Source of the DNA: Candidatus Limnocylindria bacterium
GTDB lineage: Bacteria > Chloroflexota > Limnocylindria > QHBO01
Length of the DNA: 64,000 nt
Reading direction: 5' to 3'
NCBI GenBank assembly: GCA_046262115.1
Contig: JBHENJ010000067.1
Location: 2,211-66,210 of the forward strand
This document shows positions 2,822 to 23,806 of the stretch, piece by piece. Under the pieces are notes generated by a model, which saw nothing but the letters and a program-made list of their open reading frames with translations, had not been told where the DNA came from and searched no databases. Numbering within the stretch: the stretch's first letter is position 1; every line of letters starts with the position of its first letter. A program made the position numbers and the translations under genes.

Positions 2822-3970
2822 CTAGCGGTAGGGTGGCGCGTAGAGGAGGCCGTCGTCGCTCCACAGGCTGTTGAGTCCACGCTCGAGGCCGATGGCGGTC
2901 TCCGGCCCGAGGTTCCGGTCGTAGATCTCCGCGTAGTTGCCGACCTGGGAGATCACAGTGACAACCCAGTCGGGCTCGAGGCCCAGGCCGGACTCGAACG
3001 GCTCCTCGCCCTCCGGCGTCACGCCCAGAAGGCGCTGGACCACCGGATCCTCGGTCGAGGCGGCCGTCTCCTCGACGTTGTCGGACGTGAGTCCCTGCTC
3101 CTCGGCCTCGATCGTGGCGAACACCACCCACTTGACCACGTTGAACCACTCGTCGTCGCCGAGCGGCACGACCGGGCCGAGCGGCTCCTTCGATAGCACG
3201 TCATCCAGGATCAGGTGATCCTCGGGGTTTTCAAACCCCGAACGCTGGGCCGTCAGCTGGGACCGGTCGCTCGTCGCTGCGTCACAGATGCTGTTCTCCT
3301 CGGTGTAGGTGCTGTAGAGGTCCGGGGCCTCCGGGAATGTCTCGGGATTCAGCTCGATGCCGGCCAACTGCGCGGCGTCCTGCAGGTTCTGCTCGGTCGT
3401 GGTTCCGGTCAGGACGCAGACCGTGGCGCCATCCAGCTCTTCGAGACTCGTCGCATCGATCTGCGTGGAGTTCACCATGATGGCCTGGCCGTCGTAGAAG
3501 GTCGTCGGCGCGAAGAGGCCCCATGCCGTGTCGCGGCTCACCGTCCAGGTGGTGTTCCGGATGAGGACATCGATGTCGCCGGTCTGGAGCGCCGTCGAGC
3601 GCTGGTCGGCCGTCAGCTCGCGGAACTCGACCGCCTCCGCGTCACCGAGCACTGCCGCCGCGATCGCGCGACAGAAGTCCGCGTCGAAGCCGACGGTGTT
3701 GCCCTCCGCATCGAGAACGCTGAACCCGGGTAGCGTGCCGTTGATGCCGCAGATCAGCTCACCGCGATCTCGCACCAGCGCCAGTCGGCCGTCGGTCGGC
3801 TGCTCCGGGGCAGTCGTCTCCGCAGTCGTCTCCGCGGTCGTCTCCGCGGTCGTCTCCGCGGCGGTGGTGCCCGGCTCGTCCGTGGGCAGCGGCGGAGTCG
3901 TGTCGCCGCAGGCCGCGACCACCAGCGCAACCATGAGGGGGCCGATGACAACCGAGATTCGCCTGACCAT
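2822..3970 (-). CDS. General L-amino-acid ABC transporter substrate-binding lipoprotein (AapJ-like)
   Basis: Signal peptide with lipobox (LVVAAC), a strong GGAGGAG Shine-Dalgarno sequence and a family-3 SBP fold. It carries an ETTA x4 linker. Confidence 0.85.
   Translation of the reverse strand: MVRRISVVIGPLMVALVVAACGDTTPPLPTDEPGTTAAETTAETTAETTAETTAPEQPTDGRLALVRDRGELICGINGTLPGFSVLDAEGNTVGFDADFCRAIAAAVLGDAEAVEFRELTADQRSTALQTGDIDVLIRNTTWTVSRDTAWGLFAPTTFYDGQAIMVNSTQIDATSLEELDGATVCVLTGTTTEQNLQDAAQLAGIELNPETFPEAPDLYSTYTEENSICDAATSDRSQLTAQRSGFENPEDHLILDDVLSKEPLGPVVPLGDDEWFNVVKWVVFATIEAEEQGLTSDNVEETAASTEDPVVQRLLGVTPEGEEPFESGLGLEPDWVVTVISQVGNYAEIYDRNLGPETAIGLERGLNSLWSDDGLLYAPPYR
3812..3859. repeat. 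Tandem 12-nt repeat x4 (AGTCGTCTCCGC / GGTCGTCTCCGC) encoding (A)ETTAETTAETTAETTA in the SBP linker
   Basis: Seen directly in the sequence; it is in frame and lies inside the SBP CDS. Confidence 0.9.
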
Positions 3971-4117
3971 GGACGCTCCTCCACTTCACGAACGCGAACC
4001 GGACCGTGCGCCGATCATGCTAGCGGTTCGCCTCGCCGATGCACCATGAGCTGCATCGTCGCCGACCCGGAGACCGGCTCACCTCGATGCGGTCCAGCGT
4101 TTGGCGCTCCGCTGCGG

Positions 4118-4774
4118 TCAGCCGGCTGCGGCGTGTTCCCTGATCCAGGAGGCGACCAACGCGAGGTCGTCGACGAAGAGCCGCATCTCGGCCTGACGGA
4201 ACGCCGGATCGCCCCGCAGGATCGAGGACGGATGGACGGTGGCGGTGATCCACGGTCCGAGCGTCGACTCGAGGAACTGGCCGCGCTGCCTGGTGACGCG
4301 GAAGTCCTTCCCGATCAGCGCCTGCGCCGCGGTGGCGCCGAGGCACACGATGACCTTCGGCCTCACCTGCGCGATCTCGGCCTCGAGCCACGGCCGGCAG
4401 GCGCCGATCTCCTCGGGGTTCGGCTTCTGGTGGATGCGCCGCTTGCCGCGCGGCAGCCACTTGAAGTGCTTCACCACGTTCGTGACGTACGCGCGCCTGC
4501 GGTCGATGCCGGCCTGGTCGAGCGCCTGGTCGAGCAGCTGCCCCGCCGGCCCGACGAACGGTTGGCCGGCCAGGTCCTCGCGATCGCCCGGCTGCTCGCC
4601 GACCAGCATGATGTCGGAGCCGCTGCCGCCCTCGCCGAAGACCGTCTGGGTGCCGATGCGCCACAGGTCGCAGGCTTGGCAGCCCGCCGCCGCCTGGCGC
4701 AGCGTCTCCAGCGTCGGTCGCTCGGGGATCAGGTCACGCGCCGAGCTGGTCGCGGCAGCCTTGGCGTCAAACAT
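4118..4774 (-). CDS. udgX: UdgX-type uracil-DNA glycosylase (family-4-like, forms a covalent complex with uracil-DNA)
   Basis: Carries motif A as GEQPG (family 4 has GEGPG), the R-loop KRRIH with the crosslinking His, the HPSS motif and Fe-S cysteines (CQAC...C...C). The near-full-length alignment to M. smegmatis UdgX is from my memory: GEQPGDxEDLAGxPFVGPAGxLLDxAL, VKHFK...GKRRIH, ACRPWL, LGATAAxAL, ATVHPSS. Confidence 0.85.
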   Translation of the reverse strand: MFDAKAAATSSARDLIPERPTLETLRQAAAGCQACDLWRIGTQTVFGEGGSGSDIMLVGEQPGDREDLAGQPFVGPAGQLLDQALDQAGIDRRRAYVTNVVKHFKWLPRGKRRIHQKPNPEEIGACRPWLEAEIAQVRPKVIVCLGATAAQALIGKDFRVTRQRGQFLESTLGPWITATVHPSSILRGDPAFRQAEMRLFVDDLALVASWIREHAAAG

Positions 4775-4786
4775 CGTCGAATTGCG

Positions 4787-4862
4787 TGGTGGAGATGAGG
4801 GGACTCGAACCCCTGACCCCCGCGATGCGAACGCGGTGCTCTCCCAGCTGAGCTACATCCCC
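4787..4862 (-). tRNA. tRNA-Ala (anticodon CGC), CCA encoded
   Basis: A 76-nt cloverleaf: GGGGATGTAGCTCAGCTGGGAGAGCACCGCGTTCGCATCGCGGGGGTCAGGGGTTCGAGTCCCCTCATCTCCACCA. It has the G3:U70 Ala identity pair, and the anticodon loop TTCGCAT gives anticodon CGC. Confidence 0.9.
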
Positions 4863-4897
4863 ACGGGGTGGCTGCGAGTATAACGCGGCCGTTGCTA

Positions 4898-4913
4898 TCG
4901 AACATACGTTCTA
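4898..4913. promoter_or_regulatory. LexA (SOS) box of the Cheo type: TCGAACATACGTTCTA, a perfect GAAC-N4-GTTC palindrome
   Basis: Lies 3 nt upstream of the imuA' ATG and about 36 nt upstream of the tRNA-Ala 5' end on the other strand. A TATAAC/TATACT -10 hexamer sits at 4879-4884. Confidence 0.7.
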
Positions 4914-4915
4914 TT

Positions 4916-5749
4916 ATGCTCTTCCCTATGCTGGCCACTGCGCCCGTCGTTCGTCCGCTCCCGGAGGTGCTCGTCGAGCTGCGGTCGAAGGGGCTGCGGC
5001 GTGGCGTGACCGATGCCTCCGTTCCCCGCGAGCCGCCGATCTCCACCGGCTTTGCGGAGCTGGATGACGCCCTCCGCACGGACGGGCTCCCGCGCGGAAG
5101 CTGCACGCTCCTCGACGCGGATCGCGGCAGCGGCGCAACCACGCTCGCGCTGCACACGCTCGCCGCGGCGCAGCGCGGCGGTGGCCTGGCCGCGTACGTC
5201 GACGTCGCGGGCTCGTTCGATCCGGCGACCGCGGCGCGCCTCGGCGTCCGGCTCGAGTGGCTGCTGGTGGTGCGGCCGGCGACGATCGACGAGGCGGTCG
5301 AGATTTCCGGCTGGCTGGCGCGCAGCCGCCTGATCGACGCGTTCGTGCTGGATCTCGTCGGCGCGAGGCGCCCCGTCGTGGCCGCGGCGACGAGCGCCGC
5401 GGCGCGGAGCCTCGACCGGCTGGCGCAGGTACTGGCGAGGACCTCGGCGACGGGGATCCTGCTGACGGGTCGAGCAGACCGCGAGGCGGGATTCCAGGTG
5501 GCGGGGGTCCGGATCGCGCTTGAGCGGCGGGCATGGCTGGCCATCGGTCGCGACCTGGTCGGGCAGCGCGTCGCGGCGACCGTCACGCGCCACCGCTGGG
5601 CAGTGCCCGGCGGCCGCGCGGAGCTCGACCTGTGGTTTGCCGAGGGGCGGCGGATCGACCCGATGGTCGCGCGACGCGCCGAGACGCGCGAGCTGCCACC
5701 ATCGGTCGTCGAACGGACGGCCGATCGGGTGCGCGTTCTCACGGCATAG
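4916..5749 (+). CDS. imuA: ImuA' (RecA-fold SOS mutasome accessory protein)
   Basis: RecA-like core with a P-loop (GLPRGSCTLLDADRGSGATTLALHTL) and the sequence AYVDVAGSFDPATAARLGV. The tool ORF start at 4868 would include the LexA box and abut the tRNA, so I start at the ATG at 4916; an alternative ATG is at 4928. Its place in the cassette is LexA box, imuA', imuB. Confidence 0.7.
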   Translation: MLFPMLATAPVVRPLPEVLVELRSKGLRRGVTDASVPREPPISTGFAELDDALRTDGLPRGSCTLLDADRGSGATTLALHTLAAAQRGGGLAAYVDVAGSFDPATAARLGVRLEWLLVVRPATIDEAVEISGWLARSRLIDAFVLDLVGARRPVVAAATSAAARSLDRLAQVLARTSATGILLTGRADREAGFQVAGVRIALERRAWLAIGRDLVGQRVAATVTRHRWAVPGGRAELDLWFAEGRRIDPMVARRAETRELPPSVVERTADRVRVLTA

Positions 5750-5799
5750 GAGGCGAGATTGCGGTTCAGCATCAGCCCTCAAGACGGACATGGCGAGCT

Positions 5800-6068
5800 T
5801 CACGCCGGATGACCTCCGCGAGATCGTCGCCTACATCGCCGAGCACCGGACGAGCGACGCGCCGTTCGACGTCGTGGCCGGCGGGGAGACGCCCGGCGGC
5901 GACGACCCCGCGGAGTGGGCGGCGGCCGGCGCCACCTGGTGGATCGAGCCGATCCATCCGCAGCGCTTCGCGGCGGAGGTGAACGGCGAGCCCGGCAGCG
6001 ATGAGCGGCGAAGGGCCGTGCTCGCGGCGATGACCGAGCGGATCGGCCACGGCCCGCCGCGCTTCTGA
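5800..6068 (+). CDS. Hypothetical 89-aa protein between imuA' and imuB (MASFTPDDLREIVAYIAEHRTSDAPFDVVAGGETPGGDDPAEWAAAGATWWIEPIHP...)
   Basis: Codon usage is coding-like. It faintly resembles the C-terminal end of LLM-class flavin/F420 oxidoreductases, so it may be a gene remnant. It is not part of canonical imuA'-imuB cassettes. Confidence 0.35.
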
Positions 6069-6085
6069 GCCGGAGCGGTCCGGCC

Positions 6086-7165
6086 GTGTCGCGCATCCTG
6101 GCGATGATCTGGCCGGCGCTCCGTTCCCGCGCGGCTGCCGGCCTGGATCCCGCCGAAGCCGCCGGGTTCGACGCCGCGCTCGACGCGCTGGATGAGCTCT
6201 CCCCGCGGGTCGAGAGCCCGGCCGTCGGATACGCACTCGTGGACGTCACGGGCCTGGGGCGGCTGTTCGGCGACGAGCCGCGGGTCGCCGCGCGGGCCGC
6301 CCACCTCGTCCGGGGCGTTGAACCGCTCGCGGTCCGCCTGGGGATCGGCGACAACCGCTGGCTGGCGACCGTGGCGGCGTCCCGCGCCGCCCACGGCGGC
6401 GTCGAGCGTGTGGCGCCGGACGGCGGCCGCCGCTACCTCGCGCCGCTACCGATCCGGTTGCTCCCCGCCGACGAGGACGTTCGCGGGCGGTTCACGCTGT
6501 TCGGACTGCGGGAGATCGGGCAGCTGGCCGACCTGCCGCGCGCCGCCGTGGCGGCACAGTTCGGCGTGGCGGGCGAGCGGCTGCACGCGCTGGCACGCGG
6601 CGAGGACTCGCGGCCGCTCACGCCGCGCCGCCGTCCCGAATCGGTCGCCGTCGAGTTGCCGTTCGACCCGCCGGTGGACGGCCTGGAGAGGATGGCCTTC
6701 GGCCTGCGACGCGGCTGCGGCGAGCTGTGCGTGACACTCGGGCGGCGGCATCGGGCTCCGGGACGCGCCCGGCTCGAGGTTCAGCTCGAGGCAGGCGCGC
6801 CACTCTGCGTCGAGGTCGTGCTTCCGCAGCCCGCGCTGGAGCCGGACTGGATCGCGCGGCTGCTGATCGCGCGGCTGGAGGCGACGCTGCGGGACGTATC
6901 GGTCCACCACGACGATGCGGAAGAGCCGCGGATCGTCGCGATCCGCCTGACCTTCGATCGGCTCAGCGACCCGTGGGCGCGGCAGCTGCCGGCGTTCGAG
7001 CCGCAGGCGGCGCGCTGGGAGGAGCTGCGCTGGTCGCTTGAGCGGATGCGCAGCCGCTTCGGCCCGGGGCGTCTCCGGCGGGCGCTCCACGAACGGCCGG
7101 CGGCGGCGCTCGCCGAGCGGCAGTCGCGCTTCGTCGACATCGGTCTGGAGGCCGATGCGTCGTGA
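6086..7165 (+). CDS. imuB: ImuB-like inactive Y-family polymerase (N-terminally short; C-terminal domain encoded separately)
   Basis: Contains ELSPRVES...ALVDVTGLGRLFGDEP...RLGIGDNRWLA, the ImuB/UmuC-like little-finger region. At 359 aa it is shorter than typical ImuB (about 450-530 aa), and the canonical N-terminal WCPDWP segment is absent. The GTG start at 6086 is the only start in frame. Confidence 0.65.
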   Translation: MSRILAMIWPALRSRAAAGLDPAEAAGFDAALDALDELSPRVESPAVGYALVDVTGLGRLFGDEPRVAARAAHLVRGVEPLAVRLGIGDNRWLATVAASRAAHGGVERVAPDGGRRYLAPLPIRLLPADEDVRGRFTLFGLREIGQLADLPRAAVAAQFGVAGERLHALARGEDSRPLTPRRRPESVAVELPFDPPVDGLERMAFGLRRGCGELCVTLGRRHRAPGRARLEVQLEAGAPLCVEVVLPQPALEPDWIARLLIARLEATLRDVSVHHDDAEEPRIVAIRLTFDRLSDPWARQLPAFEPQAARWEELRWSLERMRSRFGPGRLRRALHERPAAALAERQSRFVDIGLEADAS

Positions 7166-7416
7166 CCCGTCTCTACACCGATCACCCGTTGGTCCAGGTG
7201 GAGACCGATGTCGACGGGCAGCCACGCACCCTCCGCCTCGACGGCGCGACGCACGGGGAGGTGGGGGTCTGCAACCGCTGGCGGGTCGACGACGACTGGT
7301 GGCGGAACCTGGTGGCGCGCGCCTACTACAAGGTCGTCACGCGCGACGGGCTGCTCTGCACGATCTACCTCGACGAGATGCGCGGGACCTGGCACCTCGA
7401 GCGCATCTTCGACTGA
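7162..7416 (+). CDS. ImuB C-terminal domain-like ORF (DUF4113-like; WRVDDDWW ... AYYKVVTRDGLLCTIYLDEMRGTWHLERIFD)
   Basis: The GTG start overlaps the imuB TGA (GTGA). The sequence matches the conserved extreme C-terminus of ImuB (RFQVV..DG...L.....G.WW.E.iYD), so it is either the frameshifted end of imuB or a split gene. Confidence 0.6.
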   Translation: MTRLYTDHPLVQVETDVDGQPRTLRLDGATHGEVGVCNRWRVDDDWWRNLVARAYYKVVTRDGLLCTIYLDEMRGTWHLERIFD

Positions 7417-11643: not shown

Positions 11644-11659
11644 TAGAACATTCGTTCTA
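11644..11659. promoter_or_regulatory. LexA (SOS) box TAGAACATTCGTTCTA (GAAC-N4-GTTC palindrome), 11 nt upstream of the dnaE2 start
   Basis: A perfect palindrome seen in the sequence. dnaE2 is a canonical LexA-regulon member. Confidence 0.75.
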
Positions 11660-11669
11660 ATCTGGGCCG

Positions 11670-14600
11670 ATGCGCTCGGCGCCATCGGTCAGTGAGTACG
11701 TCGAGCTCCACGCCCACAGCAACTTCAGCTTCCTGGACGGGGCGAGCCATCCCGAGGACCTCGTGGCGCAGGCGGCGCTGGTCGACATGCCGGCGCTGGC
11801 GGTCACCGACCACGCCGGCCTCTACGGAGCGGTTCGCCTCTGGAAGGCAGCCGGACAGACCGATACGGACGCTGCCCGCGCAGCCGGGCTCGCACCGGTA
11901 CGCCCGATCGTTGGGCTGGAGATCGCCGTGCCACGGGACGACGACGAGCTTGCCGCCGCACGACGGGGACGGAAGCTCAACGAGCGCGTCCGCGGGGAGC
12001 GGGCGAGCCGCGGCTGGCCCGGCGAGTTCCACGCCGGCCCGCAGCCCGGTGACCATCTCGTCCTGATTGCGCGCGACGCCGAGGGCTACAGCGCGCTGTC
12101 GCGCCTCGCGTCGCGCGGCCACCTCGCCGGTGAGAAGCAGTTCCCTGTCTTCGCGTCCGAGCTCGTCGCGGCCGCGCTCGACGATGCGCGCGGCCACCTG
12201 GTCGCGCTGTCGGGCTGCCGCAACGGCGAGGTCGCGCAACGCGTGCTCGCCGGCGACCGCGACGGGGCGCTCGACAGCGCGCGGCGGCTCGCGGCGCGCT
12301 TCCCGGACGGCGACTTCGCGATCGAGCTGTCGCACCACTGCCAGCCCGACGATGACTGGCTGGTGACCGAGCTGGCCGCGCTCGCCGACGAGGCGGCCCT
12401 GCCAACCGTGGTCACGAACGAGGTGCACTACGCCGAGCCCGGCGGCCATCGGCTCCACGACGTGCTGGTCTGCATCCGGCACGGCGCGACGCTCGACGAG
12501 AGCCACGAGCTGCGACTGCCGAACGGGGAGTATCGGCTCAAGAGCGGTCGTGAGCTCGTGGCGCTCGGCACGCGGCTGCCCGACGCGCGCGCGCGGCGGG
12601 CGTGGCGCGACGGGATGGCCTGGGCGGCCCGTATCGGCGGTGAGTGCCGGCTTGACCTGGGGTTCGAGCAGTATCGGTTTCCGGGCTTTCAGGTTCCTCC
12701 GGGTGAGACGCCGTTCAGCTACCTCTACCAGCTTGCCCACGACGGCTTACGGGAGCGTTACCGCCCGATTACCAAGCGCGCCCTCGAGCAGCTGACGCAT
12801 GAGCTGGACGTCATTGACCGGACCAACCTGGCCGAGTTCTTCCTGATCGTGTGGGACCTGATGGAGTTCGCGCGCCGCTCCGGGATCATCGGCCAGGGGC
12901 GCGGCAGCTCCGGCGACTCGATCGTGGCCTATGCGCTGGGGATCACCAAGGTCGACCCGATCGAGCACAAGCTGCTCTTCGAGCGCTTCATCAACGAGGC
13001 GCGCGCGCTCCCCGACATCGACATCGACTTCGACGTCAACCGGCGCGAGGAGGTGATCCAGTACGTGTACGACCGATACGGCGCGGACCACGCCGCCATG
13101 GTCTGCAACGTGGTGACGTACCGTGCCCGCTCGGCGGTGCGCGAGGTCGCCAAGGCGCTCGGCTTCCCGACCGAGGCGGTCGATCGGCTCGCGAAGTCGC
13201 TCGACACCCGCGACGCCGGCGACGTGGCGCGCGACCTCGCGCTCGACGGGTCGTTCGGTTGGCTGTTCGACGAGATCGGCGCCGACATGGCCTCGCACGC
13301 CGTCCCGCCGGGGCGTGACGGGCGTGGCAACTACGGCAATCGCGTCGGCGGGCTCGTGCAGCGGGTCGCCGACGACTCGTGGAACCCGCGGCCGCGGCCG
13401 GCGCTGCAGCCGGGCGCCGGGGGATCGGCTGCGCCGGCCGCGACACCGGCTCCGCCGCTCGCCGATGGGCGGCCGCGCTCGGAGAGCGGCTGGTATCCGG
13501 CAAAGCGACCGAGCGTCCTCGACGCATCGGTCACTTCGGTGAAGTACGAAGGTCAGGAGACGAAGCGGTACGCGTTGGTCGACGCGGGGCCCGCCGCGCC
13601 GCCGCTCGACGTTCCGGAGCCGCGGGACAACGGGACGCCCGGGCCGTCGGGCGCGCGGCCGAGCGTGGTCCGGATCGACGAGGAGAGCGGCATGCCGGTG
13701 CGCGTCCCGCGCACGACGGAGATCCGGCCGACGGCCGCTATCGACTCCGGCACGGCGTCCGCGCCGCGCAACCGGTGGCAGTGGCTGCTCCAGCTGTGCG
13801 GGGAGATCAACGGCTTCCCCCGGCACCTCGGCATCCACGTAGGCGGGATGCTCGTGACGCGGACGCCGCTCATCGACATCGTCCCGATCGAGCGGGCAAC
13901 CATGCCGCGGAGGGTCGTCACCCAGTACGACAAGGAGGACGTGGAGGCGCTCGGGCTGGTCAAGATCGACCTGCTCTCCCTGCGGACGTTGGGCGTGGTG
14001 AGCGAGGCGCTCGAGACGATCGAGCGGGACACGGGGCGCAGGATCGACCTCGACCGGCTCCCGCACGACGATCCTAAGGTCTTCGCCACGGTCCAGGCGG
14101 CCGATACGGTGGGCATGTTCCAGATCGAGAGCCGGGCGCAGATGCAGGCGCTCCCCAAGGCGCGCCCCGAGCGCTTCGAGGACCTCGTGGTCCAGGTCGC
14201 GATCATCCGCCCCGGGCCGATCCAGGGGAACGCGGTCCACCCCTACCTGCGGCGGCGGGCGGGCCTCGAGCCGGTGACCTACCTCCACCCAAGCCTCGAG
14301 CCGATCCTGGGCGACACGCTCGGCGTGATCCTCTACCAGGAGCAGGTGATGCAGATCGCCATCGCGGTGTGCGGCTACTCGGCGCTGGAGGCCGATACGT
14401 TCCGCAAGGCGATGGGCTCGCATCGGAGTCATCGCGAGATGGAGCGGGAGCACGTCCGATTTGTCGAAGGCGCCATCGCGACGGGGCTGACGCCCGATGA
14501 CGCCGAGGAGCTGTTCCGGCGTTGCGGGGCGTTCGCCGAGTTCGGGTTCGCCCGTGCGCACGCCGCCGCGTTCGCGAAGATCTGCTACGACACGGCGTGG

Positions 14601-15578
14601 CTCAAGCTCTACTACCCGGCGCACTACTGTGCGGGTGTCCTCAACAACCAGCCGATGGGCTTCTACTCCCCGGGAGTGGTCGTCAATGACGCCAAGCGGC
14701 ACGGGACGCGGGTGCTCCCCGTGGACGTCAACGCCTCGTGGTGGTCGACGCGCACGGAACGCGTGGACACGACCGGCGATGCGGCACGCGACTTCGGGGT
14801 CCGCCTCGGGCTCCACCAGGTGAAGGGCATCGGAGAGGAGGACAGGGAGCGCCTCGACGCGGAGCGGGCCGCGGGGCCGTACGCCGGGGTGCGGGAGTTC
14901 GTGGCACGCATGCGGGTGTCGGAGCGGGTCGTCGAGCGGCTGATCTCCGTGGGGGCCTTCGACTGGACGCGACGTGAACGCCGCGAGCTGTTGTGGGAGC
15001 TGCGCGGCACGTGGGCAGCTGCCGACCCGAAACGCCCGGCCCTGCCGCTCACCGAGGTGGAGCCGATCCCCCTTGGCCTTCCCCCCATGACCGCGACCGA
15101 TGAGGTCGCGGCCGACTATCGCGAGATGGGGCTGAGTTCACGAGCACATGCCGTGGAGCTGTATCGACCGAGGTTGCTACCTCGCGGAGTCGTGCCGGTG
15201 GGGGAGGCGGGTCGTTGGCGCGATCGGTACCGGATCAGGCTGGCAGGCCTCGCGGTGGCGGTGCAGCACCCAATGACGGCGAAGAACTTCGTCTTCATCG
15301 CTCTCGAGGACGAGACCGGCATGATCAACGTCACGCTCCGCCCGGACGTCTATCAGCGGCATCGGGGCGTCGTGCACCGCTCGCCGCTCATGGTCGTGGA
15401 GGGCATCCTCCAGGTGGAGGGCGCGGTGCTCAACGTGGTTGCGCAGCGCCTGATCCCGCTCGACGAGTTCGTCGCCTCGACCCGCGAGACTGACTCCCGG
15501 ACCGATCCGGATCGGCGCGGCTCGACGCCCCGCGCCGGAGACCTAGAGGTGCGCAAGCAGCAGCGGATGTTTCGGTAG
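11670..15578 (+). CDS. dnaE2: Error-prone DNA polymerase DnaE2 (ImuC), 1302 aa, with a low-complexity insertion of about 150-200 aa
   Basis: PHP domain start (YVELHAHSNFSFLDGAS), polymerase III alpha core (GIHVGGM, FDLLSLRTLGV) and a C-terminal OB region. An extra Pro/Gly/Ala-rich stretch (about nt 13370-13800) is absent from canonical DnaE2. Confidence 0.9.
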   Translation: MRSAPSVSEYVELHAHSNFSFLDGASHPEDLVAQAALVDMPALAVTDHAGLYGAVRLWKAAGQTDTDAARAAGLAPVRPIVGLEIAVPRDDDELAAARRGRKLNERVRGERASRGWPGEFHAGPQPGDHLVLIARDAEGYSALSRLASRGHLAGEKQFPVFASELVAAALDDARGHLVALSGCRNGEVAQRVLAGDRDGALDSARRLAARFPDGDFAIELSHHCQPDDDWLVTELAALADEAALPTVVTNEVHYAEPGGHRLHDVLVCIRHGATLDESHELRLPNGEYRLKSGRELVALGTRLPDARARRAWRDGMAWAARIGGECRLDLGFEQYRFPGFQVPPGETPFSYLYQLAHDGLRERYRPITKRALEQLTHELDVIDRTNLAEFFLIVWDLMEFARRSGIIGQGRGSSGDSIVAYALGITKVDPIEHKLLFERFINEARALPDIDIDFDVNRREEVIQYVYDRYGADHAAMVCNVVTYRARSAVREVAKALGFPTEAVDRLAKSLDTRDAGDVARDLALDGSFGWLFDEIGADMASHAVPPGRDGRGNYGNRVGGLVQRVADDSWNPRPRPALQPGAGGSAAPAATPAPPLADGRPRSESGWYPAKRPSVLDASVTSVKYEGQETKRYALVDAGPAAPPLDVPEPRDNGTPGPSGARPSVVRIDEESGMPVRVPRTTEIRPTAAIDSGTASAPRNRWQWLLQLCGEINGFPRHLGIHVGGMLVTRTPLIDIVPIERATMPRRVVTQYDKEDVEALGLVKIDLLSLRTLGVVSEALETIERDTGRRIDLDRLPHDDPKVFATVQAADTVGMFQIESRAQMQALPKARPERFEDLVVQVAIIRPGPIQGNAVHPYLRRRAGLEPVTYLHPSLEPILGDTLGVILYQEQVMQIAIAVCGYSALEADTFRKAMGSHRSHREMEREHVRFVEGAIATGLTPDDAEELFRRCGAFAEFGFARAHAAAFAKICYDTAWLKLYYPAHYCAGVLNNQPMGFYSPGVVVNDAKRHGTRVLPVDVNASWWSTRTERVDTTGDAARDFGVRLGLHQVKGIGEEDRERLDAERAAGPYAGVREFVARMRVSERVVERLISVGAFDWTRRERRELLWELRGTWAAADPKRPALPLTEVEPIPLGLPPMTATDEVAADYREMGLSSRAHAVELYRPRLLPRGVVPVGEAGRWRDRYRIRLAGLAVAVQHPMTAKNFVFIALEDETGMINVTLRPDVYQRHRGVVHRSPLMVVEGILQVEGAVLNVVAQRLIPLDEFVASTRETDSRTDPDRRGSTPRAGDLEVRKQQRMFR

Positions 15579-22140: not shown

Positions 22141-22881
22141 ATGCTAGGTCCCATGGACGAGGCCCGGCCGAAGGCGACGCCCGAGCAGATCGCGACGTTC
22201 CTGACCACCGAGCACTACAGCCTCCAGTCGATCCGCACCGGGACGATCGCGGACTCGAACGGCCGCACCGCGCTCTTCCTCGGCACGCTTTCGGGCTCAC
22301 TGGTGGCCCTGGCGCTGGTCGGCCAGGTCTCGCAGCTCGGCGAGCCGATGTTCGTGCTTGCGATGGTCGTCTTCCCGACGGTCCTGTTCATCGGCCTGGT
22401 CACATACGTCCGCGTCCTCCAGGTGGCCCTGGAGGACATCCTCTGCATGCTCGGCATCGCGAGGATCCGGCGTTACTACCAGGAGATGGCGCCTCACACT
22501 CGGCCGTACTTCGTCCTGGGCGCGTACGACGACCTGGACGGGATCTGGGAGAACTACGTCTCCACGATCCCCGGCGGGCTCCAGATCTTCATGACGACGG
22601 CCGGCATGGTGGCGGTGATCGACAGCGTCCTGGCGGGCGTCACCGCCGCGCTGTTGCTTAGCCGCATCGGGATGGGCATGACCGACGTCCTGCTTCCGGG
22701 CATCGCGGCGTTCTTCATCGTCCTGGTGGCGCTCCAGGCCCACCAGGCGAGGTGCTGGCGCCGCCTGCGCCGCGGCTGGCGCTCACGCTTCCCCACGCCT
22801 GCGGTCGCCAGCGGTCCCGTGGAGACCGGCGCGGGTACGGGCGCCGCCGCCGGCGAGGGCGTGACCGCGACGCGGCGCTAG
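22141..22881 (+). CDS. Integral membrane protein, function unknown
   Basis: Multiple TM helices. Its start is 3 nt after the upstream stop. Confidence 0.45.
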   Translation: MLGPMDEARPKATPEQIATFLTTEHYSLQSIRTGTIADSNGRTALFLGTLSGSLVALALVGQVSQLGEPMFVLAMVVFPTVLFIGLVTYVRVLQVALEDILCMLGIARIRRYYQEMAPHTRPYFVLGAYDDLDGIWENYVSTIPGGLQIFMTTAGMVAVIDSVLAGVTAALLLSRIGMGMTDVLLPGIAAFFIVLVALQAHQARCWRRLRRGWRSRFPTPAVASGPVETGAGTGAAAGEGVTATRR

Positions 22882-23774
22882 AGCGCCAGCACGAACTGGT
22901 CCGGCTCCGGTGGCGGCGCGAGCGGCGTGGCTCTTCGGTCGGCGATCTCGAACCGTGCGGCAAGCTCCCGCACGCGCTTGACGGTCGGCGCGGTCTCCCC
23001 GTGCGGCAGATAAGAGCGCCGTGCGTACAGGCGCTCGTATCGGTCCAGCTCCTGCGGCCAGTCGCGCGCCAGGTTCTCGACGAAGTGCTCCCGCGTGCCG
23101 GGAGTCAGGTACAGGAGCTTGCCCCACACGTTCGTGGCGCCGGCCGCGCGTGCCGCTCGGACGACCTCTGCGAGCTGGTCGGGGCGGTCGGAGAGGCCCG
23201 GCAGGATCGGAGCGATCCCGACGCCCGCACGGATGCCCGCGTCGACGAGTGTCTTGAGCGCGCGCAGCCGCTGGCGGGGCGGCGGGGTGCCGGGCTCGGT
23301 GCGCCGCCATACCTCCGCGTCGAGGGTCGGGATCGAGAAGGTGACCGATACCTCCGCCCGCCGGGCCGCCTCGCTCAGGACGTCGAGGTCGCGCACGATC
23401 ATGGGCGAGCGGGTGATAATGCTGAGCGGGTTCCGTGCGTCGGACAGCACCTCTAGGCACGCGCGCGTCAGCCGGTATCGGCCCTCGGCCGGCTGGTACG
23501 GGTCGGTCGCCGCGCCGATGGCGACCATCTCGCGGCGCCATGACCTGCGCGCCAGCTCTTTGCGGAGGACGTCCGCGACGTTGATCTTCACGCGGATGCT
23601 CGTCCCGTACCGGTCGTCAGACGGTCGGCCGGCGCGAAGCTCGAACCCGCGGACGTAACAGAACGTGCACCGATGCGCGCAGCCCATGTATGGGTTGAGC
23701 GACCAGCGGAACGGCATGCTGGTCACCTTGTTGAGCGCGCTCCGGCAGGGCTCCTCGCGGTACTCGATCTTCAT
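22878..23774 (-). CDS. Radical-SAM DNA-repair-photolyase-like protein (SplB / Rv2578c family)
   Basis: The CAHRCTFCY radical-SAM cluster motif is close to the N-terminus (start at MKIEYREEP), and the fold is SplB-like. A LexA box lies 17 nt upstream. Confidence 0.7.
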   Translation of the reverse strand: MKIEYREEPCRSALNKVTSMPFRWSLNPYMGCAHRCTFCYVRGFELRAGRPSDDRYGTSIRVKINVADVLRKELARRSWRREMVAIGAATDPYQPAEGRYRLTRACLEVLSDARNPLSIITRSPMIVRDLDVLSEAARRAEVSVTFSIPTLDAEVWRRTEPGTPPPRQRLRALKTLVDAGIRAGVGIAPILPGLSDRPDQLAEVVRAARAAGATNVWGKLLYLTPGTREHFVENLARDWPQELDRYERLYARRSYLPHGETAPTVKRVRELAARFEIADRRATPLAPPPEPDQFVLAL

Positions 23775-23790
23775 CGGAATCCAGCCAGTA

Positions 23791-23806
23791 TAGAACGTCA
23801 GTTCTA
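23791..23806. promoter_or_regulatory. LexA (SOS) box TAGAACGTCAGTTCTA (GAAC-N4-GTTC palindrome) in the divergent region between the radical-SAM gene and the RNHCP gene
   Basis: A perfect palindrome seen in the sequence. Confidence 0.7.

Follow-up and report, generated by a model that had tools for sequence, protein, structure and literature searches.

The stretch analysed here, called the window throughout, comprises 64 kb of contig JBHENJ010000067.1 from a Candidatus Limnocylindria bacterium (Chloroflexota), and our subject is a 16-nt palindrome within it, TCGAACATACGTTCTA, a candidate LexA (Cheo-type) operator that lies at 4898-4913 between two divergent units. On the plus strand it precedes an imuA'-like gene (4928-5749, 273 aa), which heads the box-bearing unit and is followed by an imuB-like gene, with dnaE2 nearby, an order that is the same in relatives. 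On the minus strand it faces a gene for tRNA-Ala(CGC) (4787-4862) and, directly behind that, udgX (4118-4774, 218 aa), assigned by profile, motifs and structure match to the UdgX-family uracil-DNA crosslinking glycosylases. A sequence-only reading of this locus had noticed the palindrome ahead of imuA', where the 16-mer is indeed found, and had proposed that this single box serves both units, so that a tRNA and UdgX would be SOS-controlled together with the mutasome. In following up that proposal, sequence features, family membership and conservation were computed; LexA binding, start sites, co-transcription and repression on the tRNA side are what we infer from them.

The palindrome at 4898-4913 is very probably a LexA operator, given that the window holds three GAAC-N4-GTTC sites where 0.49 would be expected, each in the promoter of a gene of recognised SOS type. 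The second box, TAGAACATTCGTTCTA (11644-11659), lies in the promoter spacer of dnaE2, 10 nt ahead of its ATG, and the third, TAGAACGTCAGTTCTA (23791-23806), in the promoter of a minus-strand radical-SAM SplB-like gene, 14 nt ahead of its ATG. A search with TAGAACNNNNGTTCTA, allowing at most two mismatches, recovered the same three sites, a number reached in 0 of 100 shuffles. All three are found within the 17-nt spacer of promoter-like elements, which read TTGCTA, N17, TATGCT, N7, ATG 4928 for imuA'; TTGCCG, N17, TAATCT, N6, ATG 11670 for dnaE2; and TTGGAG, N17, TATACT, N12, ATG for the radical-SAM gene. Radical-SAM genes of the SplB/COG1533 kind recur in the SOS regulons of other phyla and are listed as such by Erill and co-workers (PMC4951493). 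Taken together with the boxes of seven relatives, the three window sites give a local consensus of TAGAAC-N4-GTTCTA; measured against it, the box that had been called perfect has a perfect core palindrome but a 16-mer that is off by one flank base.

Around the box, the imuA' promoter has a −35 hexamer TTGCTA (4892-4897) and a −10 hexamer TATGCT (4915-4920), both on the plus strand, with the palindrome filling the spacer between them. ATG 4928, 14 nt after the box, is the conserved start by alignment with relatives, and a 273-aa database protein starts there too. The box had been placed 3 nt before the imuA' ATG; an in-frame ATG at 4916 does lie 2 nt after the box, but it falls inside the −10 hexamer, and we rejected it as the start because both the alignment and the database protein favour ATG 4928. 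Since this conserved start is only 7 nt past the −10, the imuA' mRNA is predicted to be leaderless, and the same prediction is made for that of dnaE2.

Close relatives were gathered through protein database matches and look-up of the encoding contigs, and L-numbers are used here as labels for the loci and contigs compared with the window. The combination of imuA', box and divergent tRNA-Ala(CGC) is kept in eight distinct contigs including the window, the others being L083/L084, L085, L168, L169, L170 (whose tRNA is truncated because the contig stops there), L171 and L173. The box stands 13-14 nt from the imuA' ATG in all seven of the related contigs, each of which holds that upstream region. 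Six of the seven also have it in the spacer of an imuA' promoter, with a −35 hexamer of the TTGCGA/TTGCCT/TTGTGG type at the same position and an aligned TANNNT −10 (TACACT, TAAACT or TAGACT) followed after 6-7 nt by the ATG; L173 has the same box-to-ATG distance, no such −35 and no clear −10 hexamer. We consider it highly likely, from this pattern of sequence, that the box belongs primarily to the imuA' promoter as its LexA operator.

The tRNA on the other side, found by ARAGORN on the minus strand and the only tRNA found in the 64 kb, encodes its CCA, carries a G3:U70 pair and matches with 100% identity in each of the five relatives to which it was aligned. The sole match in a permissive-E Rfam scan of 3800-6200 was a sub-threshold tmRNA at 4787-4862 (40.4 bits against a gathering score of 47). 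We dismissed it, since tmRNA has a tRNA-Ala-like domain that explains such a match; the tRNA family was masked at this position by clan competition. The −10 hexamer of the tRNA promoter, TATACT, lies on the complement of 4877-4882, not 4879-4884 as first given, 14 nt ahead of the tRNA 5′ end, and a GC-rich discriminator follows it. TATACT occurs three times in the window, against 0.62 expected. That it is placed to drive tRNA-Ala, as the sequence-only reading held, is borne out by six aligned loci in which it is the sole invariant upstream block while the flanks diverge, and it is present also in L170, L171 and L173; judged by this conservation, the promoter is real. The box spans about −43 to −28 of this promoter in the window, separated from TATACT by 15 nt, and thus overlaps its −35 region as had been claimed. 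The imuA' and tRNA promoters overlap in the window, and their predicted start sites are ∼58 bp apart.

The product of 4118-4774 is a true UdgX by every sequence criterion, in keeping with its earlier identification as a UdgX glycosylase. It scores 278.6 bits on NCBIfam TIGR03914 (cutoff 189.95) and matches the M. smegmatis UdgX structures 6ail, 6ajo and 6iod over its full length (E about 5e-65). Motif A, GEQPG, is present (VGEQPGDREDLAG), as is the R-loop KRRIH with the crosslinking histidine (LPRGKRRIHQKPN), aligned with the KRRIH of M. smegmatis UdgX; motif B reads HPSSILR and so deviates from HPS(S/A)(L/V)(L/V)R by an I in place of one L/V. The motif definition, taken from PMC10359453, includes the Gln that replaces the family 4 Ala/Gly in GEQPG. 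An identical 218-aa database protein from Candidatus Limnocylindria is named UdgX family.

The udgX ATG follows the encoded CCA of the tRNA by exactly 12 nt, as had been stated, and this spacer (CGCAATTCGACG, 4775-4786, minus strand) holds neither a Shine-Dalgarno sequence nor a promoter. From the 5′ end of the tRNA up to the udgX ATG the window contains no hexamer of the form TANNNT, and the corresponding intervals of L081, L169 and L171 contain none either; an internal udgX promoter inside the tRNA gene was rejected for this reason, and a consensus scan of 3900-6200 returned no terminator-like site. Given that there is no room for a promoter of its own, a point already made in the sequence-only reading, and no sign of one, udgX would depend on the tRNA promoter, and its co-transcription with tRNA-Ala appears likely. 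In an actinobacterium, tRNAs with an encoded CCA have been seen to be cut endonucleolytically a few nucleotides beyond their 3′ end (PMC3848588).

As tRNA genes are hot spots of insertion, udgX might instead have a promoter of its own, either as an independently expressed gene or as an island that entered at the tRNA 3′ end. What follows the tRNA does differ from one relative to another: the gap ranges over 7-196 nt, L085 has an additional open reading frame (ORF), and L168 has rsgA and two further genes. The distribution of UdgX is sporadic (PMC10776899), its closest genomic relatives among the matches listed are from Acidobacteriota at about 70% identity, and a tRNA-Cys adjoins udgX in some Actinomycetota. 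Set against these points are the missing TANNNT hexamer, the absence from the window of any repeated copy of the tRNA 3′ end, the lack of an integrase gene noted among those adjoining ORFs that were checked (not all were), and a GC content that is unremarkable across the locus, with no compositional break. A tRNA-targeted island is unsupported on these grounds, and we regard this explanation of the locus as very improbable.

What sets the window apart from its relatives is the distance between the box and the tRNA promoter. The gap from box to TATACT, 15 nt in the window, is 27 nt in L173, 29 nt in L085, L169 and L170, 30 nt in L083, 32 nt in L168 and 37 nt in L171. In the relatives the box therefore falls at about −57 to −42 of the tRNA promoter, upstream of the −35, and the imuA' −35 hexamer lies between it and the tRNA promoter; most of them also have an extended −10 element, TGn-TATACT, making a −35 dispensable. 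The window appears to have lost roughly 15 bp from this spacer. Going by the predicted promoters, the geometry for one box serving both units is present in the window but absent from the seven relatives, where the conserved placement is in the imuA' spacer. Because the relatives have their box 27-37 nt from the tRNA −10 and upstream of the −35, it is doubtful that a LexA effect on tRNA-udgX is a conserved, selected design, whereas two-way control within the window itself is plausible.

The position of udgX is also variable. It lies downstream of the tRNA by 7 nt in L081, 12 nt in the window, 49 nt in L171, 63 nt in L169 and 196 nt in L083; in L085 it comes after one extra ORF, in L168 it is 1.75 kb away, past rsgA and two opposite-strand genes, and in L173 there is no udgX and a convergent Kelch-repeat gene takes its place. 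A separate promoter, TACAAT-N7-GTG, is probable for the udgX of L083, and none of the relatives has a second box near udgX. The closest UdgX (90% identity) is that of L081, which has two tandem udgX paralogues (2-598 and 750-1415) flanking a tRNA-Ala(CGC) with TATACT, the second udgX sitting upstream of the tRNA in place of imuA', and no LexA box was found in this 7.4-kb contig piece. In the comparison with relatives that had been proposed earlier, the box and the tRNA are kept together in seven related contigs, udgX changes its position, L081 has the linkage without a box and L173 the tRNA without udgX. Any association of udgX with LexA in this clade comes only from its place beside imuA'. 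A tRNA-Ala(GGC) gene was also seen ∼0.9-1.7 kb downstream of udgX in L081 (2807-2882), L083 (5176-5251), L169 (6998-7073) and L166 (3241-3316), and not in the window.

These comparisons bear on two opposed explanations. In the first, which is that of the sequence-only reading, the box is a purpose-built two-way operator through which tRNA-Ala(CGC) and UdgX are SOS-induced alongside the mutasome. In its favour are the location of the box over about −43 to −28 of the only candidate tRNA-udgX promoter in the window, and the gene order, as udgX lies downstream of the tRNA and beside imuA' in five of six read-through contigs (L083/84, L085, L168, L169 and L171; not L173), in four of them within about 0.7 kb and on the same strand as the tRNA. 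The divergent udgX-mutasome arrangement of many other UdgX loci, described below, with palindromes beside both starts, and the documented LexA regulation of uracil-DNA glycosylase (UDG)-domain genes in other phyla point the same way. However, overlap with the tRNA core promoter is unique to the window, the seven relatives mostly having a TGn −10 that needs no −35; tRNA-udgX occurs without a box in L081, udgX stands elsewhere without one in L168 and has its probable own promoter in L083; no Cheo box was found near udgX in the Actinomycetota loci among the matches listed; and a LexA-regulated tRNA was not found in the literature searched. We consider this explanation unlikely.

At the other extreme, tRNA-udgX would be constitutive, with no meaningful effect of LexA, the adjacency being inherited gene order and the box mattering for imuA' only. 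The tRNA promoter is conserved regardless of where the box lies, the GC-rich discriminators are typical of stable-RNA promoters, and L173 has the tRNA beside imuA' with no udgX behind it. E. coli offers a precedent, in that ssb shares a box with uvrA, yet its SOS dependence has been disputed for decades (PMC9505508). Full independence is nevertheless hard to square with the geometry of the window, where LexA bound at 4898-4913 would occupy the −35 and RNA polymerase at the tRNA promoter would overlap the imuA' promoter, and we rate this explanation too as improbable.

Rather, we lean towards an account between the two, in which the box is the operator of imuA' and the short spacer of the window lets LexA probably also dampen tRNA-udgX, as a matter of lineage-specific crowding. 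LexA would bind 4898-4913 and block the leaderless imuA' promoter, with dnaE2 and the radical-SAM gene under their own separate boxes. The tRNA-Ala(CGC) promoter would fire from TATACT, and the transcript would extend past the tRNA to cover udgX as well; cutting by RNase P and by a 3′ endonuclease would then free the tRNA and leave a udgX mRNA with a leader of at most 12 nt and no Shine-Dalgarno sequence, to be translated in leaderless mode as inferred for imuA' and dnaE2. With a spacer ∼15 bp shorter than that of the relatives, the operator comes to lie on the −35 position of the tRNA promoter, so that LexA would probably also lower tRNA-udgX transcription, and upon LexA cleavage the two overlapping promoters would be expected to compete for RNA polymerase. 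Whether LexA measurably affects the tRNA-udgX unit here is, judged from the sequence, an even call.

Several points weigh against this account. The tRNA promoter of the window has no recognisable −35 and no TGn extension, which most relatives have, and its dependence on the region under the box is assumed. A consensus promoter scan of 3900-6200 found nothing; the scan used E. coli-type criteria, too strict for a GC-rich lineage, and the promoter elements were instead read by eye and by conservation. No lexA candidate was seen, the S24 peptidase GxSM motif being absent from window ORFs of at least 150 aa. The short spacer could itself have been selected to bring tRNA-udgX under LexA, and the wide udgX-imuA linkage in Acidobacteriota speaks for a tie between UdgX and the SOS cassette that goes beyond coincidence.

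That linkage was found in a wider sample, the UdgX loci among the matches listed from genome and metagenome scans (at most 73% identity to the window UdgX), to which all counts in this paragraph and the next apply. GEQPG is present in 165 of 169 of these loci and KRRIH in 163. Where at least 2.5 kb of upstream sequence was available, 59 of 102 loci place imuB and/or dnaE2 immediately upstream of udgX and in the opposite orientation. Nearly all 59 contain a RecA-fold ImuA-like ORF whose start is, by nominal coordinates, some 0-280 nt away from udgX; two such ORFs were compared with NCBIfam. The paired loci are mostly from Pyrinomonadaceae, Blastocatellia and other Acidobacteriota; no udgX-imuA linkage was found in the sampled Vicinamibacterales, Actinomycetota, Sorangium and others. 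A tblastn search with the window ImuA-like protein gave no match to Acidobacterial ImuA at E 1e-5, so the pairing involves different ImuA types in the two phyla.

The spacers of the paired loci carry palindromes that are specific to the lineage. Blind enumeration of upstream repeats and palindromes was confounded by conserved imuA coding sequence, and the spacers were therefore read directly and specific palindromes counted. Twenty-one of the 24 occurrences of GCAAACT-N3-AGTTTGC in 1.35 Mb lie at most 320 nt upstream of udgX, typically with one copy near each gene, and one further copy precedes imuB. All ten occurrences of TAGGNCCTATAGGNCCTA fall within the same distance upstream of udgX, and GGTTATATGTAACG fills a 15-nt spacer in five loci; examples of spacers with palindromes are L153 2331-2413, L007 5934-5995 and L002 2846-2862. 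These palindromes are probably operators. A second, independent adjacency of a tRNA to udgX was seen in several Actinomycetota/Gaiellaceae genome loci and two unclassified metagenome contigs, where tRNA-Cys(GCA) lies 65-100 nt upstream of udgX on the opposite strand (L029 5844-5914, L074 5847-5917, L075 5131-5201 and L134 4855-4926) or, in L112 (4830-4900), on the same strand.

Our tentative interpretation of this recurrence, which we hold at somewhat less than even confidence, is that UdgX serves the ImuA-ImuB-DnaE2 mutasome as a dedicated partner under joint SOS regulation, and that expression of the Limnocylindria udgX from a tRNA-punctuated, nearly leaderless mRNA is one variant of this. 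The UdgX literature searched discusses only cell survival of its DNA-protein crosslinks, not a physiological role. If the interpretation is true, UdgX that has excised a uracil and become covalently joined to the resulting abasic site may protect or flag damage in single-stranded DNA or at stalled forks, for bypass dependent on DnaE2; its function would then resemble that of the SRAP/YedK/HMCES crosslinkers, which are linked to the SOS response. The recurrent head-to-head pairing thus yields a testable hypothesis, that UdgX acts in SOS mutagenesis or lesion tolerance, and we see it as a more valuable result than the local geometry of the box. The latter has an interest of its own, in that a 15-nt and a roughly 29-nt spacer between the same operator and tRNA promoter form a natural experiment on the control of one or two promoters from one site, which could also reveal whether an SOS regulon can come to include a tRNA.

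The sequence-only reading had taken the arrangement to be undescribed, which our survey of the literature upholds in part. Shared LexA boxes are already published, the classical case being the single box between the divergent E. coli uvrA and ssb genes (Brandsma et al. 1983, reviewed in PMC9505508), where a box over the −35 region represses uvrA and an effect on the more distant ssb has been disputed for decades. Common to both loci is one box between divergent units that overlaps a −35 position, in the window that of a predicted promoter, and may act on the second promoter too. The window differs in that its box occupies the imuA' −35/−10 spacer as well as the tRNA −35 position, that its other unit consists of a tRNA and a predicted passenger mRNA rather than a protein gene, and that the two-way geometry is not conserved in relatives.

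UDG-domain operons under SOS control have likewise been published. LexA-regulated radical-SAM/UDG-domain operons (TIGR03916, and TIGR03915 with a TIGR03914 domain) are known from Verrucomicrobia, Alphaproteobacteria and Bacteroidetes (PMC4951493, PMC8565304), and Aravind et al. placed DUF4130, radical-SAM and UDG genes in an SOS gene-neighbourhood network (PMC3765255). The family-4-like UDG domain of those operons, in which LexA control is predicted or supported by electrophoretic mobility-shift assay, is matched by TIGR03914 as is ours; unlike them, the window UdgX is a stand-alone protein of 218 aa with a KRRIH loop, has neither a DUF4130 fusion nor a TIGR03916 partner, and adjoins imuA'. 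M. smegmatis UdgX (MSMEG_0265; PMC4787834, PMC10359453) shares all class-defining motifs with the window protein, whose gene differs in its predicted place on a tRNA transcript beside imuA'. Neither LexA control of udgX nor a link of it to imuA or dnaE2 was found in the UdgX literature searched. One box for two units is therefore a local variant of a known principle, and SOS-linked UDG-family genes are not new; it is the linkage of a stand-alone UdgX to imuA-imuB-dnaE2, not found in the literature searched, that is apparently so.

A LexA-regulated imuA-imuB-dnaE2 mutagenesis cassette was reportedly described by Erill et al. in 2006, and the window resembles it in having a RecA-fold ImuA-like protein, a truncated Y-family ImuB-like protein and DnaE2 nearby, with GAAC-N4-GTTC at both imuA' and dnaE2. 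In mycobacteria imuA'-imuB forms one unit and dnaE2 another, a split that the window also shows. Unlike the mycobacterial cassette, that of the window comes from a metagenome-assembled genome of the Chloroflexota (Limnocylindria), its ImuA-like protein fails the NCBIfam cutoff for ImuA and has no ImuA' match, its ImuB is short and accompanied by a separate conserved 84-aa ORF, and a tRNA-Ala-udgX unit abuts the operator. For tRNA-mRNA co-transcription the E. coli unit thrU-tyrU-glyT-thrT-tufB is the known case, alongside the tRNA punctuation model of mitochondria. It too has a protein gene immediately 3′ of a tRNA, uses the tRNA promoter and takes the mRNA 5′ end from tRNA processing, as predicted for the window; unlike it, the unit in the window has just one tRNA, udgX lies 12 nt behind it with no Shine-Dalgarno sequence in between, and the processed mRNA would be nearly leaderless.

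Of the mutasome proteins in the window, the imuA'-like product is certain only in its RecA fold (Pfam RecA, 86.3 bits); it scores 39.9 bits on NCBIfam ImuA (NF033429), below the cutoff of 150, and has no match to NCBIfam ImuA' (NF058630) at E ≤ 1e-3. The imuB-like gene (6086-7165, plus strand) encodes a truncated Y-family polymerase of 359 aa that matches the C-terminal part of the Pfam IMS domain only (25.7 bits) and, weakly, Pol IV models; the gene is syntenic in relatives. It is followed on the same strand by the 84-aa ORF (7162-7416), which starts with GTG and overlaps the imuB stop by 4 nt. This is the most conserved protein of the cassette, 88-95% identical in L083 (679-933, minus strand), L169 (2230-2484, minus), L170 (2031-2285, plus) and L171 (2719-2973, plus), where ImuA' reaches only ∼67%. 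Its sole profile match is a weak one, to DUF6504 (E 0.056), and given that ImuB is short here it may be a detached ImuB C-terminal-type domain. Between imuA' and imuB the window has a 93-aa ORF (5787-6068, plus strand) with no Pfam match, 46% identical to a 96-aa ORF of L083 (2070-2360, minus); it is missing in L169, L170 and L171, where imuB directly follows imuA'.

Some 4.5 kb separate imuA'-imuB from dnaE2, the interval holding unrelated genes, among them those for a RibD_C-like reductase and a luciferase-like oxidoreductase. dnaE2 itself (11670-15578, plus strand) encodes an error-prone DNA polymerase of 1302 aa (NCBIfam NF004225, 1060 bits, cutoff 939), in which residues 517-703 form a ∼187-aa insert rich in Ala, Pro, Gly and Arg. 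The radical-SAM SplB/COG1533-like gene runs from 22878 to 23776 on the minus strand, and the box in its promoter (23791-23806) overlaps the TATACT −10 hexamer.

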